A stretch of 64,000 bases of DNA from positions 128,001 through 192,000 of IMG/VR virus record IMGVR_UViG_3300011559_000001; one strand, given 5' to 3'. The notes beneath the pieces are model-generated. The model had not been told where the DNA came from. It did no database searches and was given only the letters and a program-made list of their open reading frames with translations. This document shows, in pieces, positions 3-11,370 of the stretch (its first letter is position 1; each line of letters begins with the position of its first letter). The position numbers and the translations under genes were made by a program. This DNA is from a virus. Taxonomy: Duplodnaviria > Caudoviricetes.

Positions 3-2384
3 GCGCCTAACACGCACTTCGGTGCTACCAACACGGGCAACACGATCCTTGAGATCGGTGGGCGGGCTGGTACGGCCACCACGGTCGGACTGGACTTCCA
101 CAGCAGTGGCAGTAACAACGACTTTGACTCGCGCATCTCGGCAACGGGTGGTACGGGCACCAACGGTGCAGGTAAGTTGACGGCCTCGGCTATCGACTTC
201 GGGTTCACCGGTACGGTGACGCTGGTCAACGACAAGCTGCTGTACTTCGGCTCCAGTGGTGCAGCCATGCGCGGTACCAGCACGGGTAGCATTGTGTTGG
301 CTTCGGGTGTGGGCGCTAGCGGTAACGTCTACCTGCGTCCCAACGGCGAATCCAGTACCACCGGACAAGCTGTGGTCTACACCAACGGTGTGTTGGATGC
401 CAACAGTCTGAAGGCCAATAACTCCGGTGCTGGCGCAGTCATGCTTGAGCTGTCCGGCGAGCGTGCGTGGCAGTTCCGTCAGTCGGGCACTGCAGCGACT
501 TCGGCACTGGAACTGTTTGACGTCACCGGCGGTAAGCGCTTTGACATCACCTCGACCTCCAGCAGTAACAAGGTCTCCATTGACCCCAACGCTTCTCGCG
601 TGTCGGCCAATGAGTTCGTCGGTTCGCTGACCGGTAATGCCAGCACGGCCACCAATGCATCGACGGTGGGCAATCTGGCGGCGGGTTCGTTCCTGCGTAG
701 CGATTCCACCAACAGTGTTGATGTGCGTTTGGCATCTGGTGACGGTCGTGGTCTGCGGTTCTGGGACAACGACAATTACAAGATCTCCATGAGTGCGGCG
801 ACCACGGCTAACACCGGTGGTCGGATCACGGGTGAAACCACCTCTGATTACAACATGTACTTCCGCATGTCCTCGGGCACCAATCGCGGTTTCGTCTTCG
901 AGGCTAGCAATGCCAACAAGATCTTCGCGATCAACCCCAACGGCGTTCGGTCGGTTGTGGGTATGTACGCTCCGGGCTTCACCGGTCCGCTGATTGGTAA
1001 CGCCGACACGGCAACCAAGCTGGCTACGGCCCGCACGATCAACGGTGTCAGCTTTGATGGCTCGGCTAACATCACCATCAATGCCGCATGGGCCGGTGGT
1101 AATGTCAACAATGTGATCAACATCTTCAACGGTACGATCAACTCGCAAGCGTCGTTGTTGACGTTGGGTTGGGGTACCGGTTCGACACGATGGGCGCATG
1201 TGTTTGAAGGCGACGCTACCTACTCGCTGTACTCCTACAACGCTAGTGGTGGTAATCCGTTGCGTGTGGCATGGTTTGCCAATTTGGCCGGCGGCGGCAA
1301 TAGCTTCTCTGCATTCGGCGTTGAAGGTGGTATCCGCACCCAAGGCGCCAGCGCAGGGCTTAACGTGGCTGACCGTACCGGTGGTAGTAATGGTGATTGG
1401 AGCATCTACGCTTCGGATCAGGCGCTTCGCTTCTGGTACGGCGGGACGGGCGCCAGTGATAAGGTCTCCATCAGTTCCGGTGGTGAGGTGGGTGCTCAGC
1501 GTGCACGACTGATCGCTGAAGCGCCGCTGCACTTTACCTTCGGCAATGGCAGTTTGTCGCGCATCTACGCATGGGGTACGGGTGGTGCAGGCGATGACAT
1601 GTTCAACGTCTTGCGCAATGGCACCAGTAACTACAACCTGTTCTGGAACGGCAACATGGAGGCGTCCAACACGCTCCGTGTGGGCAATCAACTCTACCTC
1701 AACGGTGGTTGGTTCCGTACCCAGCAGTCAGGGTGTGGTTGGTACCACGAAGTCCATGGTGGTGGTTGGTTCATGCAGGATAACACCTGGATCCGAACCT
1801 ACAACGGCAAGGGTGTCCTGATCACCGGTGCCTCCGGCAATGACGGTGGCCTGCGTATGGAAGGTCCCTCGCCGACGGTCACCTTCTACGATACCGACAG
1901 TGGTCGTACCAACTGGCTGCACTGCAATGACGACAACATTGGCTTCCTGGCCAGTAACTCGTTCTCGTGGGCAACCTACCGCAACGGCAGCAACGACTGG
2001 GTGTGTATCGGTAACATCGTGGGCTACTCCTCCGATGAACGCCTGAAGCACCACATCTACAACGTGGACCGTGCGATCCCAACGGACTTCTTTGACCGCT
2101 TCGTGGTCCGGGAATTCGACTGGAACTACGACGCCATTGCGGAACTGAATCCCGACTTCAAGCCGATTGCCGACCACGAGGTCGGTGCCGTCGCGCAGGA
2201 GGTCGAGAAGGTCTATCCGTTCATGGTGACCACGCACGAGCACACCGGCATCAAGACGATCATGTGGGACAAGGCTGTCCCGCTGTTGATCTCTGAGGTG
2301 CAGGAGCTGCGCAAGCTCAAGCCGGTCGTTGACGAGCTGCTCCAGCGCATCGCGGCGCTGGAGGCCAAGACTGGGGGTGGCTAA
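3..2384 (+). CDS. Tail fibre protein with C-terminal peptidase S74 intramolecular chaperone (5' truncated by the window)
   Basis: Frame is open from base 3 (…GLDFHSSGSNNDFDSRI…), so the ORF-track start at 177 is not the true start. Gly/Ser/Thr/Asn-rich, contains the fibre motif KLATARTINGVSFDGSANITI, then SDERLK…GAVAQEVEKVYP plus a C-terminal coiled coil typical of S74. Confidence 0.9.
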   Translation, partial: APNTHFGATNTGNTILEIGGRAGTATTVGLDFHSSGSNNDFDSRISATGGTGTNGAGKLTASAIDFGFTGTVTLVNDKLLYFGSSGAAMRGTSTGSIVLASGVGASGNVYLRPNGESSTTGQAVVYTNGVLDANSLKANNSGAGAVMLELSGERAWQFRQSGTAATSALELFDVTGGKRFDITSTSSSNKVSIDPNASRVSANEFVGSLTGNASTATNASTVGNLAAGSFLRSDSTNSVDVRLASGDGRGLRFWDNDNYKISMSAATTANTGGRITGETTSDYNMYFRMSSGTNRGFVFEASNANKIFAINPNGVRSVVGMYAPGFTGPLIGNADTATKLATARTINGVSFDGSANITINAAWAGGNVNNVINIFNGTINSQASLLTLGWGTGSTRWAHVFEGDATYSLYSYNASGGNPLRVAWFANLAGGGNSFSAFGVEGGIRTQGASAGLNVADRTGGSNGDWSIYASDQALRFWYGGTGASDKVSISSGGEVGAQRARLIAEAPLHFTFGNGSLSRIYAWGTGGAGDDMFNVLRNGTSNYNLFWNGNMEASNTLRVGNQLYLNGGWFRTQQSGCGWYHEVHGGGWFMQDNTWIRTYNGKGVLITGASGNDGGLRMEGPSPTVTFYDTDSGRTNWLHCNDDNIGFLASNSFSWATYRNGSNDWVCIGNIVGYSSDERLKHHIYNVDRAIPTDFFDRFVVREFDWNYDAIAELNPDFKPIADHEVGAVAQEVEKVYPFMVTTHEHTGIKTIMWDKAVPLLISEVQELRKLKPVVDELLQRIAALEAKTGGG

Positions 2385-2854
2385 TGGCCATCCCCACCTC
2401 TGGTCAAATCAGCTTCGGTGACTTCCTTAACGAGTTCGGTGGGGGCACGCCGGTCTATTTCAGCCAGATGTATCGTGGCGGTCCGCGTGTTCCCAACAAC
2501 TCGGCCAACCAAGGCGTCCCCACCAGCGGTACGTTGTACCTCTCGCAGTTTCGAGGTGCAGCTGCCTCAGTGGGTTCTCCGCTGTCGGTCACCGCACCGA
2601 ACGTGAGTCGTGTGGTCAACAGCGGTACGGCCACCGGTAGCTCGGTAGCCAGTGCCTCCGGTGGTTCGGGTGGTTACACCTATACCTGGACCAACGGTAC
2701 GCCGGGCGCCAACTTCAGTTCCAATGGTGCAACGGCGACTTGGTCGTCCCCCTCGAGTCGTTCGGGTACGGGTACGGTCACGGTACGCGACTCCTCCGGT
2801 GCAACGGCCTCCTACCAGATCTACGTGGATCTCACGGTGGGTCGTCCGGTTTAA
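2384..2854 (+). CDS. Small tail-fibre tip/adhesin-like protein, paralog 1
   Basis: TAATG overlap with the fibre stop. N-terminal module (EFGG…YRGG…VP…N…SQFRGA) is shared with 3362 and 3901; the C-terminus is a Ser/Thr/Gly beta-rich domain. Confidence 0.7.
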   Translation: MAIPTSGQISFGDFLNEFGGGTPVYFSQMYRGGPRVPNNSANQGVPTSGTLYLSQFRGAAASVGSPLSVTAPNVSRVVNSGTATGSSVASASGGSGGYTYTWTNGTPGANFSSNGATATWSSPSSRSGTGTVTVRDSSGATASYQIYVDLTVGRPV

Positions 2855-2926
2855 GTAAACCTCCAACGGGACATGGACGTCCCTGCGGACACCTTTTCAC
2901 ATGGCACAGTTCTACGGGGGTAGACA

Positions 2927-3358
2927 ATGTCCAATCAACAAGAGAATGCACGTTTCGTGGACATGGGTGGCGGCAACATTGCCGAAATGATTTCGCACCA
3001 GATCCAAGTGTTCTGGGATCCGACCAACCAAGCAGCGCGGGCTGTGTTCAACGGCGCCCCGTACATGCTGATGGGTCGCAAGTACCAGCGCATTGGCTTG
3101 GAGCAGGACATGCTCGAGCAGGAACTGACGCACCTGATGCACCTGCGTCTGATCCCGCCGGGTACGCTTGATCCGGTCACAGGCTTTGACCTGTCCAACG
3201 TGTCGATGTATGGCATCGTGCTCATCCACAAGGGTGCGTACGACTTCTTCTACAACGTCCGTGCTGGCACGCCGGGGTACCCGTTGCCGGGTACGATCGA
3301 AGGCGCCCAGCCCACTTACCAAGGTGACAGCCGCCCGGCGGCACCCGTGGAGATCTAA
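2927..3358 (+). CDS. Tail-associated hypothetical protein (DPVTG..LS.VS…K.AYD motif), possible fibre/tip assembly factor
   Basis: Clean ORF with G-rich RBS between tip paralogs; the motif is recalled from Xanthomonadaceae phage tail modules. Confidence 0.6.
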   Translation: MSNQQENARFVDMGGGNIAEMISHQIQVFWDPTNQAARAVFNGAPYMLMGRKYQRIGLEQDMLEQELTHLMHLRLIPPGTLDPVTGFDLSNVSMYGIVLIHKGAYDFFYNVRAGTPGYPLPGTIEGAQPTYQGDSRPAAPVEI

Positions 3359-3361
3359 ACC

Positions 3362-3838
3362 ATGGCATTGGGTACGAATCCGAGTTTCTCGCAAGTGCGC
3401 GCGTTCTTTGGAGGGTCTGCGAATCTAAAGGACTATTATCGTGGGGGACCTTACGTACCCAATATCCCGGCGAACAACGCCATCTCCACTACAGCCGCTG
3501 GATTGCGGTTGACCCAGTTTACCGGCGCTGACAAGCAGTCGAACTTCACCTGGAGTGTGAGCCCGAACATGTTCCGGGTAAACAACTCCACTGCGTGGAC
3601 AACGCAGGCGTTCACCATCACCACTTCCGGAGCGACCGGAGCGGTGACCTATGCAATCGAGCTGTATCCGCAATCGGGGATGCTGGCCAATGTCATTTCT
3701 GGTAACGGCACCGCCAACCCGTCCGTCCAAGCACGCCGACAGGGTCAGGAAGTCAGTGGCGAGGACAGTTTCATTCGCTTCAAGGTCACGCACGCTGGTG
3801 TCACCACTAGCGTTGACGTGCAGATGTACTTCGGCTAA
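3362..3838 (+). CDS. Small tail-fibre tip/adhesin-like protein, paralog 2
   Basis: 37 of the first 41 residues are identical to 3901..4479; unrelated beta-rich C-terminus. Confidence 0.7.
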   Translation: MALGTNPSFSQVRAFFGGSANLKDYYRGGPYVPNIPANNAISTTAAGLRLTQFTGADKQSNFTWSVSPNMFRVNNSTAWTTQAFTITTSGATGAVTYAIELYPQSGMLANVISGNGTANPSVQARRQGQEVSGEDSFIRFKVTHAGVTTSVDVQMYFG

Positions 3839-3842
3839 CGCA

Positions 3843-3875
3843 AGGGAGGGACTTCGGTCCCTCCCTATTTTATGC
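3843..3875 (+). terminator. Hairpin AGGGAGGGAC-TTCG-GTCCCTCCCT followed by ATTTTATGC
   Basis: Perfect 10-bp stem with UUCG loop just after the stop codon. Confidence 0.75.
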
Positions 3876-3900
3876 TCTCTTCCACTTTGCAGTAGCAGTC

Positions 3901-4479
3901 ATGGCTTTAGGTTCTAACCCCAGCTTTTCCCAGATCCGTGCTTTCTTTGGTGGGTCGAATAACTTCAAGGATTACTATCGCGGCGGCCCGTACGTCCCGA
4001 ACATTCCTGCCAATAACGCCATCCCCACCGGTCCTGCGGGGATGAGCATGCGCCAGTTCTCTGGTGCTGATAAGAACACCGCACCTCCCGTACCGAACTT
4101 TGGTGATGCCAGTGCGTATGCTGACCTGTTCGTCAATAGTGCGGGCGGCGGCAGTTGTAACGCCTACGTCGAACTGCACAACAACGGTCAGGTGTATTCG
4201 TATTCCTCGACCAATGGTGCTGGTTATGTCTCCACCTGGCTGCCCAGTGGTCGCTCCCCTGGCGAGTACATGGCCCGACGTAGTTTTGACAATGGTGCGA
4301 CGTGGGAAGGCTGGCAGTCGCTGGCGTCCACGTACCTGTGTGTCTCGGCCAATGCGTGGTCCGATGGCTTCTACAGTGAACAAGATAGCCAGGTTGCGCT
4401 GGTGCAGATCGGCTATGGTGGGAATGTCCAAGCCCAAGCTAACTTCTACGCCACCGCCTCGGCCAACGGTCGCGGTTAA
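3901..4479 (+). CDS. Small tail-fibre tip/adhesin-like protein, paralog 3
   Basis: Shared N-terminal module, Pro linker (TAPPVP), aromatic-rich variable C-terminal domain. Confidence 0.7.
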   Translation: MALGSNPSFSQIRAFFGGSNNFKDYYRGGPYVPNIPANNAIPTGPAGMSMRQFSGADKNTAPPVPNFGDASAYADLFVNSAGGGSCNAYVELHNNGQVYSYSSTNGAGYVSTWLPSGRSPGEYMARRSFDNGATWEGWQSLASTYLCVSANAWSDGFYSEQDSQVALVQIGYGGNVQAQANFYATASANGRG

Positions 4480-7280: not shown

Positions 7281-7892
7281 TTACAGTGCTTGTAGCTGGA
7301 AGTGCACCGGGGTCTTCTTGATGGCCTTGGCCACCTGCGACAGGATCGCAGTGGGTTCACGGTAGGTACCGTATTCCTTCATGTAGTCCGTTTCCAGACG
7401 GCGCTTCTTTTCCATGCGCTTCTTGCTCTGGCTCCATCCGAAGATGCCCCACGCACGCACGGCCAGGAACATCACCGTACGTTCAAACAGGTTCACCCCG
7501 GCCACCTTCATCGCATCGCGGAAGATGTGATCGGCCTTTTTACGACTGACGGTGACGGGCACCTCGTTGTGGAACATGGTCTTACCTTCGCACAGGATGT
7601 CGTGCAGGACAGCAGCCTGGCCGTAACGGCCCCACGGCGGCAGGATGAACCACAACGGCTTGGGCACGCTGGCACCATCGGTGAGGAAGCCTGCCGGGAT
7701 ATACGCCCAGACATCACGGTTCTCAACATCCAGGTAATAGCGGAAGGACTTGGTGACCTTGTAATAGGCCTTGCCCAACAACTCCGTTGCGGCTTGGTCT
7801 TTCACCACTTCCAACTCTGCGTCGAAATTGGTGAATGCCTCAGCGGCCTGCAGCAACGTGGCCGTGGGGACATAAGGTGTTTCGATGTTCAT
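7281..7892 (-). CDS. DUF1353 family protein
   Basis: IPAGFLTDGASVPK…WGRYGQAAVLHDILC…RKKADHIFRDAM…AVRAWG signature; GGAG RBS before ATG 7892. Confidence 0.85.
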   Translation of the reverse strand: MNIETPYVPTATLLQAAEAFTNFDAELEVVKDQAATELLGKAYYKVTKSFRYYLDVENRDVWAYIPAGFLTDGASVPKPLWFILPPWGRYGQAAVLHDILCEGKTMFHNEVPVTVSRKKADHIFRDAMKVAGVNLFERTVMFLAVRAWGIFGWSQSKKRMEKKRRLETDYMKEYGTYREPTAILSQVAKAIKKTPVHFQLQAL

Positions 7893-7913
7893 TGAATGCT
7901 CCACGGAATAAGA

Positions 7914-7938
7914 AACCGGGGAGGTTACCCTCCCCGGT
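7914..7938. terminator. Hairpin ACCGGGGAGG-TTAC-CCTCCCCGGT
   Basis: Perfect stem downstream of the Hint gene; near-identical stem at about 42581-42603. Confidence 0.65.
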
Positions 7939-7945
7939 GTTTGCC

Positions 7946-9283
7946 TTACTGGATTTCCTTCACCACCGTTGCGTTGTGAGTGGCGATACGACGATCGCCC
8001 TGCTCACCTGCAAAGTAGCTCTGGTCATCAACGTTGAACAGGACCACATCACGCACACCGACGAACTCGATATGCACAACCGGTTCCCAACGCAGCTGAC
8101 CACGGTCGTTGACGAAGACCTCTTCGTTGAGCATCTCCGGACCGAACATCTTGTTCGTACCATCGCGCATCGTCATCGGGGTGGACTCCGAAGCAATGAT
8201 CGAGATACCCGAACGGGTGGTCAGGCGGTAGCACGGCTGCGGCATCACTGCGTTGGCACGGACTTGACGCGGGACCATCGTGTCCGGCTCGTAAGCCGAA
8301 CCGTCAATCCAGTCGCCAATAGCAATGTCCGAAGCCAACCGCTCTTCGTCCATCCACATGGTCGTTGCCACGCAGCCTCCGCCACCACCACCGCCTCCGC
8401 CCCCTCCGCCACCACCACCGCCTCCGCCACCACCTTCGGGGGTGACGATGTCAATGTCGTTGAACTCGTTGACGAAGTTGAACAGGAAGCGGAAGTTGTT
8501 GACGACGTTACCGTTGCGCTTGAGCAAGACGCGGAACCAACCGCGGTTGTAGATGCGCAGCACCGCATTGGGGTCGCGGAAGTTCGAGTTATTGGACAGC
8601 GTGGTCATGTCCAGATTGAGCAACAACACGCGGTCTTGATTCAACGGCATGTCGTCGCCGTTGCCAGAGGTGACCATGGTGGTGTTGTTGAACGCACCCG
8701 GCGGACCCGGCTGCCATTCCCATTGGCCAGGACTGTTCCCGTTGCGCGGAATCCACCAACGACCCGACTCGAAACTTTCCAGCCCGTAAGAGATGGTGTA
8801 GTTGTCGCCGAAGTTGTCACGCGGGTTCTGTGCCCAGTTACCATTACCCAAGACGCGACCGTCCGGATACAGGTACCCGATCTGACCACCACCGGAACGC
8901 ACCACCAATGCTCGGTAGTTGCGGGTCATGTGCCACAGTTCCCACGAACCGTTGCGCCGGAAGGTCAGGCGCAACTGATTGGTGTTGTGGGCCACGTGCC
9001 AAATGACCGACGGGCAGCTGGACATGACGTTGTCGTAACTGCCGATGTCGCCCATCGCATTGGTGTAACCTACCGTGCCTTTACCGGCCCAGTAGTTGGT
9101 GACGTCCGGGCCGGTGATGTCGTAGTAACCCACGTCGGCAATCTTGCTACCTGCCGAGAGCGGAGCGTAGCGCATCAGCGAACCGTCAGGGCGGTAGTAA
9201 CCGAAGAGCTGGGGACCGTTTTCGTCCGGTTCGAACAGGTCGTCAAAATCCCAACCTGCACCATTGTAGTAAGCGACAGCCAT
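7946..9283 (-). CDS. Tail-fibre tip/adhesin-like protein with poly-Gly linker and C-terminal Hint (intein-like) domain
   Basis: Directly follows an S74 fibre, with AGGAGG RBS. Twenty Gly codons, then CV…ASDIAIGDWI…CYRLTTRSGISIIASESTP…VGVRDVVLFNV…YFAG…THN. Confidence 0.8.
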   Translation of the reverse strand: MAVAYYNGAGWDFDDLFEPDENGPQLFGYYRPDGSLMRYAPLSAGSKIADVGYYDITGPDVTNYWAGKGTVGYTNAMGDIGSYDNVMSSCPSVIWHVAHNTNQLRLTFRRNGSWELWHMTRNYRALVVRSGGGQIGYLYPDGRVLGNGNWAQNPRDNFGDNYTISYGLESFESGRWWIPRNGNSPGQWEWQPGPPGAFNNTTMVTSGNGDDMPLNQDRVLLLNLDMTTLSNNSNFRDPNAVLRIYNRGWFRVLLKRNGNVVNNFRFLFNFVNEFNDIDIVTPEGGGGGGGGGGGGGGGGGGGGCVATTMWMDEERLASDIAIGDWIDGSAYEPDTMVPRQVRANAVMPQPCYRLTTRSGISIIASESTPMTMRDGTNKMFGPEMLNEEVFVNDRGQLRWEPVVHIEFVGVRDVVLFNVDDQSYFAGEQGDRRIATHNATVVKEIQ

Positions 9284-9294
9284 CTTGGGCCTCC

Positions 9295-11370
9295 TTACTT
9301 ACTTTCCAGCGCGGCCAGGCGGGTCAACAGCGAATCGATCAGGATCTGCTGCTGTGCCACCTTTTCGTGCAGGCGATCGGTTTCCACACCCACGGCGTAG
9401 GCCATTTCCATTGCCAGACCGGTGTTGTTCACCGCCAGACGCTTGGACTTGCGCTTCACGCCGTGATCGTACTCGATGACCAGATCCGGGGCCACCTTCT
9501 GCAGGTCCTGTGCAATCGGGCCAACCTGGTGTTCACCGGTCTCCCGCATGTTCCACTGCTTGAAGTCAAACCCGCGCCACAGAGGACGTGCCTCGATCAG
9601 GCTGATGTTCTTCTTCAGGCGCTTGTCGGAGGGCTGGAAACCCTGACCGGCAATTGCACGGCCGTTGTGAACCACGAAGTTGCCGCCGGCTTGGAACTGG
9701 AAGAACCGCGAACCGGCCACGCGCAGCGAGATCGAACCATCGCCATCCTGATACAGGTAACCGGAGTTACCGATCACCAGCGTATTCAGGGTTGCGTTGG
9801 AGCCAGTGATCACACGATCGTTGATCTGTGCCTGCAGCGGGTTGTAGGCGATGGCGACGATGGCCTGACGCGTACGCAGCGGTGACATGAACAGGGTGTT
9901 GGAACCACCCGACTCGGCATTGGCCTGATCGGACATGCCGTAATTGGGTACGTTACCCAAACCGACCTGCGCAGCCGTGGTGTTGTGCGGGTTATCGCTA
10001 CGGTTGATGTGCGCATTGAGCGAATTGGTCAGCGGGGTCACCGCTTGCGAGGTGATCGCTTCCTTGGTCCGCAGCGGGGTCATGTACGTGGCATTGTCCG
10101 TACCGGTCTGCGCTTGGGCAGTGGTGGCAATACCGTAGTTCTGCACGTTCCCCAGACCCACCTGTGCTGCCGTGGTGTTGTGGGGATTGTTGGTGTTGTT
10201 GATGTGCGCGGTGAGCTGGTCGCCGGCCACCGACTGGATCAACGCACGTGCACCGGCAGGGGTCACGAACAGGTTCGTGGCCGTACCGGCAATGGCTTGG
10301 GCATTGGTAGCCGTAGCGTAGTTGTCGACATTGCTCAGACCGACTTGCGCCTTGGTCGTGTTGTGCGGATTATCCACACGTGCAATGTGCGAGTTCAACG
10401 GGGCCAGTGCCAGTGCCGTGATGGCCGCACCGGTGAGGGTGGCGGTCATGTACGCTTCACCCACACCCGCCTGGGCCTGTGCCGTGGAGGCCAGACCATA
10501 GTTGACCACCGAGCCCAAGCCGACTTGCGCCTTGGTCACGCCGTGCGGGTTGTCCGTACGAGCGATATGTGCATTGAGGGAGTTGCCCACCTGAGAGGTG
10601 ATGGCTTCCTTGGTGCGCAGGGGCGTCATGTACAGCACGTTGGAGGTGCCGGTGGTGGCGTCGGCCGTGGCAGCAATGCCATAGTTCAGAACGCTACCCA
10701 GGCCGACCTGTGCCTTGGTGGTGTTGTGCGGGTTGTTGGTGTTGTTGATGTGGTCATTGACCAGCGAGTCCATCGAGGTGATCAGGGCACGCAGTTCGTT
10801 GTCCTTCAGGTCGATGTACTGACGAAGTTCATCAAACGCGGCCTGGTCGCCCAGCAGGATCGCACGGCGGATCTGTTCGAGCACCGCCACCAAGTACTCA
10901 AACCCGTACACATCACCGATGTCATGCAAGTGAGCGGTGGGCGGGAAGTACTCGGGGGCACCGATGATGTCGCCCCAGTTGACGGTACGGTTGTCCAGAT
11001 CCAGACCATCGAGCATCTGCGCGATGGCCGTGACCGAAGCGGAGTATTCACCGCCCACTGCCTGGTAGTCGATCTCGATCTCGGTGGCGCGACACGCCGG
11101 CAGGATCAGAACGACCGAGCAGATTTCCTGACCTGCACGAAGCGAGGCTTCGATGAACAGGTGGACCGGACGGTAGTCGACGTCCGGGGCCAGAACGGCC
11201 CCGGTCGAACGGTTGCGCACGATCATTCCACGAGTGTAGAACGGACCGCGAGTGGTGACGAAAGCTCGGTTCCCGGTAGCCGCCACGGTGTGACGCTCGG
11301 TCACCACCTTATTGGTGGCGGCCACACCGGAGAGGTCGAGCGGGAGTTGAATTACGGGAGGGGTACTCAT
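9295..11370 (-). CDS. Tail fibre protein with five H..NPH..T.AQVGL repeats and a C-terminal S74 chaperone
   Basis: N-terminal anchor resembles that of 11402..14767 (GPFY…IDYQAVGGEY…P..FPP..HLH); SDKRLKKNI…GPIAQDLQKVAPDLV at the C-terminus. Confidence 0.88.
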   Translation of the reverse strand: MSTPPVIQLPLDLSGVAATNKVVTERHTVAATGNRAFVTTRGPFYTRGMIVRNRSTGAVLAPDVDYRPVHLFIEASLRAGQEICSVVLILPACRATEIEIDYQAVGGEYSASVTAIAQMLDGLDLDNRTVNWGDIIGAPEYFPPTAHLHDIGDVYGFEYLVAVLEQIRRAILLGDQAAFDELRQYIDLKDNELRALITSMDSLVNDHINNTNNPHNTTKAQVGLGSVLNYGIAATADATTGTSNVLYMTPLRTKEAITSQVGNSLNAHIARTDNPHGVTKAQVGLGSVVNYGLASTAQAQAGVGEAYMTATLTGAAITALALAPLNSHIARVDNPHNTTKAQVGLSNVDNYATATNAQAIAGTATNLFVTPAGARALIQSVAGDQLTAHINNTNNPHNTTAAQVGLGNVQNYGIATTAQAQTGTDNATYMTPLRTKEAITSQAVTPLTNSLNAHINRSDNPHNTTAAQVGLGNVPNYGMSDQANAESGGSNTLFMSPLRTRQAIVAIAYNPLQAQINDRVITGSNATLNTLVIGNSGYLYQDGDGSISLRVAGSRFFQFQAGGNFVVHNGRAIAGQGFQPSDKRLKKNISLIEARPLWRGFDFKQWNMRETGEHQVGPIAQDLQKVAPDLVIEYDHGVKRKSKRLAVNNTGLAMEMAYAVGVETDRLHEKVAQQQILIDSLLTRLAALESK

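Follow-up and report, generated by a model that had tools for sequence, protein, structure and literature searches.

A predicted tail-fibre-tip adhesin of a jumbo phage was found to end in a run of 20 glycines, a minimal Hint domain and a short C-terminal tail with a single lysine, a residue present in every terminal tail of the Hint family that was examined. This Gly20-Hint-tail segment is an optional, portable cassette that is dispensable in orthologues. For its function we tentatively favor a reading, in itself not quite an even bet, in which a thioester would form at the Gly-Cys bond, the tail lysine would attack it, and cyclization of the terminal asparagine would release the Hint domain. 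The window analyzed here (64,000 nucleotides, positions 128,001 to 192,000 of the IMG/VR record IMGVR_UViG_3300011559_000001) is part of one 310,882-base contig.

Gene neighborhood and predicted docking on the fibre tip

The adhesin gene (7946..9283, minus strand, 445 aa) is the terminal gene of a fibre operon and lies, as a sequence-only reading of the window had stated, directly downstream of an S74 fibre. This partner tail fibre (9295..11370, minus strand, 691 aa) matches Pfam Peptidase_S74 with an E-value of 2.6e-10 and carries the S74 chaperone after Ser581, while a hairpin resembling an intrinsic terminator (7915..7938, minus strand), also found in orthologues, closes the operon. Synteny extends to metagenomic loci and to the Xanthomonas jumbo phages RTH11 (72% identity over the full length) and LucasX (54%), the nearest annotated relatives, with which the gene order is shared. 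The genes around the adhesin match phiKZ-type virion PHROGs, and the source phage is a phiKZ-like, Xanthomonas-type jumbo phage, the phiKZ-like assignment depending in part on what we take these PHROG families to be. A plus-strand ORF of 521 aa across the adhesin gene was discarded as its antisense shadow. Directly after the adhesin gene, a DUF1353/phrog_1158 tail-assembly-chaperone gene (7281-7904, minus strand) follows in nearly all syntenic loci. Elsewhere in the window (2384-4479, plus strand), three small genes (at 2384, 3362, and 3901) stand behind the other S74 fibre and have a common N-terminal module (phrog_30374) and divergent C-termini; these are further putative tip adhesins, forming a second set in which no member has a Hint. 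No second Hint of the same family was found in the phage genome.

The first 73 residues (9065..9283, minus strand) were annotated as a fibre-attachment module from a phrog_11610 match (aa 3-121), the complex model and the S74-fibre neighborhood, and an S74-motif fibre is encoded directly upstream in all 12 loci carrying this module. A model combining adhesin aa 1-283 with a trimer of the C-terminal 90 residues of the matured fibre gave a complex score of 0.82 (best of three controls 0.14). Of 80 solved complexes 58 reach the mark applied, against 2 of 110 mismatched pairs, although these counts are only roughly valid here. Contact agreement between runs was at least 96% and the pLDDT of the partners at least 86. 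The predicted interface pairs adhesin aa 3-58 with the last eight residues (C-terminal strands) of all three S74-cleaved fibre chains. The model, with one adhesin copy per fibre trimer, supports the tail-tip role suggested earlier; part of its high score may stem from resemblance to fibre-adhesin complexes already solved. The same tip arrangement is known from gp38 on gp37 of phage S16 (PMC7289586). With one copy per fibre, cross-linking between adhesin copies is unlikely. Beyond the module, a variable all-beta sandwich (aa 74-283; 8435..9064, minus strand; AF2 pLDDT 85) is the putative receptor-binding part, and it is swapped for different bodies in orthologues. Its Ig-like and fimbrial-adhesin matches are weak (all Z < 6), and fold searches with aa 1-283 returned nothing above Z 6, a result that speaks neither for a known fold nor for a novel one.

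The Hint domain, its linker and its family

The 20 consecutive glycine codons reported at 8375-8434 are present in the minus-strand ORF (9283..7946) and encode a flexible linker that is the longest glycine run, in any frame, within the window. Because its codons are mixed (GGT/GGC/GGA/GGG) it is not a slippage repeat, and the mixed codons together with conservation in RTH11 (19 glycines, again with mixed codons, at the equivalent position) rule out a microsatellite or an assembly artefact. A Gly-rich linker is typical of the Hint family (median of 8 Gly among the last 20 residues before the Hint); the residue at -1 is variable (Gly in 64/155 relatives, 41%; Trp in 30/155), and neither Gly at this position nor the 20-Gly length is a general rule of the family.

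Behind the linker, the Hint domain runs from Cys304 to Asn437 (7973..8374, minus strand), as delimited by the AF2 model (pLDDT 90), Foldseek, the VIA structure comparison and the intein register. The sequence-only reading had assigned the last 140 or 142 aa to a Hint; the fold is indeed there, but the domain proper measures 134 aa, and 142 is reached by counting the tail. The best Foldseek match was the bacterial intein-like (BIL) domain of C. thermocellum (2lwy, E 1.5e-6), and among the matches listed all were Hint proteins (47 matches at E<=1e-3). VIA gave Z 18.3 to the NpuDnaB intein (4o1r; rmsd 1.8, 131 aligned residues), 17.6 to the Hedgehog Hint (1at0), and 16.1 to BIL2, while in the ESM Atlas Hint families were recovered both by features and by structure. 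At E<=0.1, no Hint-clan Pfam match (PT-HINT/Hint_2) was obtained in 112 members, NCBIfam gave none, a single-sequence search of the PDB returned no Hint match, and a profile search returned weak intein matches. Kinship to the Hint superfamily is visible by structure and language-model features only, and genes carrying a Hint of this subfamily are annotated as hypothetical, since neither Pfam nor NCBIfam recognizes it. Automatic annotation already marks Hint domains in some phage proteins.

Every sequence statement of the sequence-only reading holds, including the cysteine at 8372..8374 (Cys304, Cys1 of the Hint) and the terminal His436-Asn437, behind which Ala opens a tail of 8 residues. Cys1, the putative N-terminal nucleophile, is Cys in 144 and Ser in 9 of 155 relatives (one or the other in 153/155), and in the Thr-His-Asn that ends block G (7973..7981, minus strand) His occurs in 155/155 and Asn in 152/155. 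Canonical splicing is not possible, as had been noted, with Ala at +1 of Asn437; at this position relatives have Cys in 0/152 and Ser or Thr in 20/152. Block B (8177..8191, minus strand) does read S-E-S-T-P, which aligned to T-H-D-H-P of the KlbA intein puts Ser at B7 and Thr instead of His at B10 (Ser in 150, Thr in 151, and Pro in 155 of 155 relatives); Ala occupies B10 in the other 4, and His in none. In the same register Asp-F4 and His-F13 are absent, with Met at B12 and Leu at F4. In inteins His-B10 is the most conserved residue (PMC4031507). Thioester chemistry at the Gly-Cys bond, proposed earlier, is probable. Position 48 (C351; 8231..8233, minus strand) co-varies with position 1: it is Cys, Ser, or Thr in 141/144 Cys1 members and hydrophobic (Leu/Val/Ile) in 9/9 Ser1 members.

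A profile search with the Hint retrieved 949 clusters at E<=1e-3 (506 at 1e-10), and the 155 relatives examined have a median pairwise identity of 34% (range 19-96%). The domain is found at the extreme end of unrelated proteins (PKD-repeat proteins, a gp53-like fibre, a VrlC-type protein of DLP6, ORF231 of XacN1), the parts upstream fall into at least 37 unrelated clusters, and Hints on unrelated proteins can be 57-72% identical. Cultured carriers are RTH11, LucasX, XacN1, PhiXhv-12, and DLP6. Where present, the Hint evolves under tighter purifying selection than does the body of the adhesin (dN/dS of 0.12-0.19 vs. 0.27-0.35, rough values as dS is near saturation).

Two syntenic orthologues (L127 and L128) end exactly at the linker start, a third (L129) keeps the Gly linker and a short tail similar to that of L246 with the Hint missing, and a fourth (L130) has a Hint of a divergent branch with the lysine present, which makes the cassette both optional and exchangeable. 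Hint-less syntenic orthologues with the same adhesin body were found in two assemblies. An obligatory S74-like folding chaperone, one of the roles previously put forward, was rejected on the same Hint-less orthologues and on the adhesin being modeled as a monomer, one copy per trimer.

Several variants of the domain were noted. In PhiXhv-12 (L003:6423-6842), a free-standing, catalytically dead Hint-like ORF without Cys1 or His-Asn lies directly after the Hint-bearing adhesin. Tandem Hints joined by Lys-containing linkers of 5-7 residues occur in P0013, P0064, and P0114, in two cases with a second copy lacking Asn or tail. The terminal Asn is lost in L247 (P0033, 5001-6617) and likewise in P0062 and P0122 (L248:4001-4732), being replaced by Thr or Ile and followed by a Pro-rich, Lys-containing tail of 23-26 aa; with this replacement, release of the Hint by Asn cyclization is impossible. 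Hint-like domains starting with Gly-Cys-Phe, found at protein ends on viral contigs (L069, L254, L261, L016, L064, and similar ones), have no His-Asn and a longer C-terminal extension.

The tail lysine and its possible roles

The tail (7949..7972, minus strand) holds one lysine, K442 (codon 7958-7960, +5 from Asn), the proposed acyl acceptor. Lysine occurs in 147/147 terminal tails (3-26 aa) of the Hint family, exactly once in 144, while Arg occurs in 9. The number of Lys-bearing tails expected among 147 is 19 from the Hint composition, 37 from ORF ends of the same genomes (a null that takes in non-coding ORFs), and 66 under a generous, hence conservative, 10% Lys. The offset from Asn ranges from +1 to +13, and the Hint tree implies at least 42 changes in it, with the lysine never lost. 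One Hint-less orthologue (L129) has the Gly linker and a short tail without lysine, a single case. In the AF2 model the tail is disordered (pLDDT < 50). As Tko CDC21-1, the only intein known to function with no His-B10, uses a lysine instead (PMC4031507), viral contigs were sampled by DNA pattern alone, independently of the 147 tails (175 relatives in both sets). This sample gave 28 terminal Hints from 13 clusters, all with an intact His-B10, and all 28 tails contain lysine (about 11 expected). The lysine thus belongs to these cassettes in general and is not merely a patch for the lost histidine. A role purely as a stand-in for His-B10 is weakened accordingly.

Two other layouts place a lysine behind a Hint. 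In L010, L018, L044, L258, L307, and about 35 similar loci, the layout is mirrored: the Hint lies near the N-terminus of large tail-tip-like proteins, presumably resembling lambda J, after an N-flank of about 20 aa ending in Gly, and a Gly-embedded lysine follows 5-21 residues past Asn, although this may simply be the usual N-terminal motif of J. In L029, L077, L255, L263, and L321, the Hint follows about 120 residues that end in I-L-E-G-A-G-G, and GGGG-K stands behind it. This preceding part may resemble the ubiquitin-like tail assembly protein I; if so, these proteins would be a BUBL architecture in a phage tail.

The analysis establishes the anatomy and fold of the protein, how its residues are conserved, that the lysine is invariant, that selection is purifying, and that the cassette can be dispensed with; the chemical steps of the scheme that we tentatively prefer are all inferred. 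Roughly the first 60 residues would dock a single adhesin copy on the S74-cleaved fibre trimer, at the tip, and Cys304 would convert the Gly303-Cys304 bond to a thioester. The epsilon-amine of Lys442, presumably near the active site as it lies five residues past the terminal Asn, would then accept the acyl group in place of the missing +1 Cys/Ser/Thr, and cyclization of Asn437 would free the Hint, the last two steps being possible in either order. The product would be adhesin-Gly20 isopeptide-bonded to the 8-residue tail, and our best guess is that the phage would gain a maturation step which is timed, self-contained and free of any leftover reactive thioester. The invariant Cys1, the His-Asn and the single lysine of floating position are most simply explained by splicing to the amine of a side chain, and this has a precedent in BIL2 of Tetrahymena, where a Lys isopeptide is formed by splicing (PMC8616854). 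The reaction may be slow or conditional, since His-B10, Asp-F4, and His-F13 are absent. Further points count against lysine splicing: the modeled tail is disordered, characterized type A BILs mainly cleave (PMC4031507), three relatives without Asn still have Cys1 or a long Lys-bearing tail, and an octapeptide-capped product has no obvious use.

The lysine could also serve as a catalytic helper, an acid/base or oxyanion stabilizer and not an acyl acceptor, with the Hint excising itself by thioester hydrolysis and/or Asn cyclization and leaving a free poly-Gly end. Such cleavage fits the missing His-B10 of the family and the fact that Arg never stands in for the lysine, which is compatible with a catalytic amine as well. 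We regard it as unlikely, however, because the lysine is equally invariant (28/28) where His-B10 is kept and because its position drifts from +1 to +13, unlike that of a fixed catalytic residue.

It is more doubtful still that the thioester waits for an outside amine or hydroxyl (on a virion protein, a host pilus, a cell-wall amine, or a lipid), with the 20-Gly arm giving reach and the tail lysine acting as latch or pseudo-substrate. The long Gly linker shared with RTH11, the modeled position of the Hint at the outermost fibre end, the mirror layout with its lysine on a large C-flank, and the conjugation of BIL2 to other substrates and of Hedgehog to cholesterol (PMC8616854, PMC7664689) speak for it. 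Against it, a lysine linked to the active site by as little as five residues would be expected to outcompete outside nucleophiles, the Hint has no Hedgehog-like recognition region past Asn, and orthologues exist without it. The transfer to an external nucleophile suggested in the sequence-only reading thus lost ground to the invariant lysine that the Hint carries itself, 1-13 residues past Asn. We likewise consider it improbable that Gly-linker, Hint, and lysine form a cassette, widespread in phage tails and here without the block B histidine, for isopeptide ligation that needs no enzyme. Such a cassette could attach the poly-Gly arm of the adhesin to a lysine of some other virion protein or of the host surface and so create a covalent phage-host or fibre-adhesin link; a single domain would then run what resembles ubiquitin-like conjugation.

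Slightly further down stands the idea that the Hint is slow or unreactive and stays on the virion at the end of its flexible arm in a structural or binding role, possibly locked, e.g., by a Cys1-Cys48 disulphide outside the cell. The missing His-B10, Asp-F4, and His-F13, the dead free-standing copy behind the PhiXhv-12 homologue, the co-variation of Cys48 with Cys1, and the conservation of the Hint beyond that of the adhesin body, up to 57-72% identity on unrelated proteins, are consistent with it. A passive domain, however, has no need of Cys1, Ser-B7, Thr-His-Asn, and a tail lysine that are near-invariant at 19-96% identity, and Ser at position 48 in 23 members means that a disulphide is not general. 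A selfish or neutral element, excising itself from protein ends that tolerate it and bringing the phage no gain, perhaps also acting as a conserved recombination anchor for swaps of adhesin bodies, would explain the patchiness in orthologues (absent from L127 and L129, divergent in L130) and the joining to at least 37 unrelated upstream clusters, but is very unlikely, there being no homing endonuclease and one stop codon being enough to delete a C-terminal Hint, as in L127, while 949 clusters persist under purifying selection.

In the literature, with subscription journals largely outside our coverage, we found neither Hint domains of phage tail proteins nor lysine splicing in phage tails described, in agreement with the earlier remark that such a role is uncharacterized for a virion receptor-binding protein. 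The adhesin gene is not taken up in the papers on XacN1 and LucasX (ORF231 is absent from the text of the former), and a literature search for virion proteomics of RTH11 or LucasX returned none. What the locus adds is a His-less Hint subfamily, a modeled fibre-tip position, Hint-less orthologues, and cultured phages. If lysine-directed splicing holds, many phages would mature receptor-binding proteins by a reaction so far demonstrated for one ciliate BIL domain, fibre tips would have a second autoprocessing system next to S74, and a 134-aa domain able to join any protein terminus to a lysine would be of use as a tool for ligation. A subfamily without His-B10 under purifying selection also bears on the catalysis of the N-S shift, and cultured carriers with natural Hint-less orthologues as controls make the question directly testable.

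Comparison with known systems

The adhesin Hint is neither an intein nor a Hog domain. Class 1 mini-inteins (NpuDnaB, SspDnaB, gp41-1) give the top structural scores (Z 17-18), but the adhesin Hint has no +1 Cys/Ser/Thr and no real C-extein and does not sit within a conserved enzyme motif; whereas a class 1 intein interrupts its host protein, both flanks of which are joined in alleles that lack the intein, the C-flank here is 8 aa and the Hint-less L127 ends before the linker. A class 3 intein was rejected, as Cys1 is present, B12 is Met and F4 is Leu, so that of the Trp-B12/Cys-F4/Thr-G5 triad only Thr-G5 was found. Tko CDC21-1 works without His-B10 by means of a lysine, which lies inside its domain, unlike the tail lysine. 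The Hedgehog Hog domain (1at0, Z 17.6) is likewise a C-terminal Hint, and as in Hedgehog the end of an N-terminal functional domain would be activated; the adhesin Hint, in contrast, has 8 residues past Asn and no sterol-recognition region, which excludes sterol transfer of the Hedgehog type, keeps His-Asn, and has its own candidate nucleophile.

On the adhesin side, the closest likeness is to gp38-type tip adhesins (S16, T2-like) on S74/IMC-matured gp37 (PMC7289586, PMC12143355), with which it shares the gene position directly behind an S74 fibre, a variable distal domain and, as predicted here, a small N-terminal module on the trimer tip at 1:3. It differs by the beta-sandwich fold of its distal domain, by glycines gathered in one terminal linker instead of a polyglycine type II sandwich, and by the added Hint. 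Pfam, PHROG, and fold searches, which barely probed aa 1-72, listed no gp38 match.

With the type A BIL of C. thermocellum (2lwy) the adhesin Hint shares the minimal Hint fold, Cys1, a terminal His-Asn, and the lack of both an endonuclease and a +1 nucleophile, and its 134 aa and His436-Asn437-Ala438 fit the type A size of ~130-150 aa. It differs by Thr-B10, by the loss of Asp-F4 and His-F13, by the absence of a PT-HINT/Hint Pfam match (112 members), by the location of its family at the extreme C-terminus of virion proteins (C-flank 3-9 aa), and by a proposed acceptor that is a Lys side chain, not a freed alpha-amine. BIL2 of the Tetrahymena BUBL1 locus (6Y75, 6TMM; PMC8616854) has the same Hint fold, Gly-rich N-flank, and missing +1 nucleophile, and a C-flank lysine as isopeptide acceptor, the candidate counterpart of which is K442. 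BIL2 is flanked by ubiquitin-like domains, keeps the block B histidine, and has demonstrated activity, whereas the adhesin Hint, at ~10% identity, follows a beta-sandwich adhesin with poly-Gly and has a tiny peptide as acceptor. The domain therefore departs from both in profile, block B, and flanks, yet it would act like a type A BIL, possibly like BIL2.
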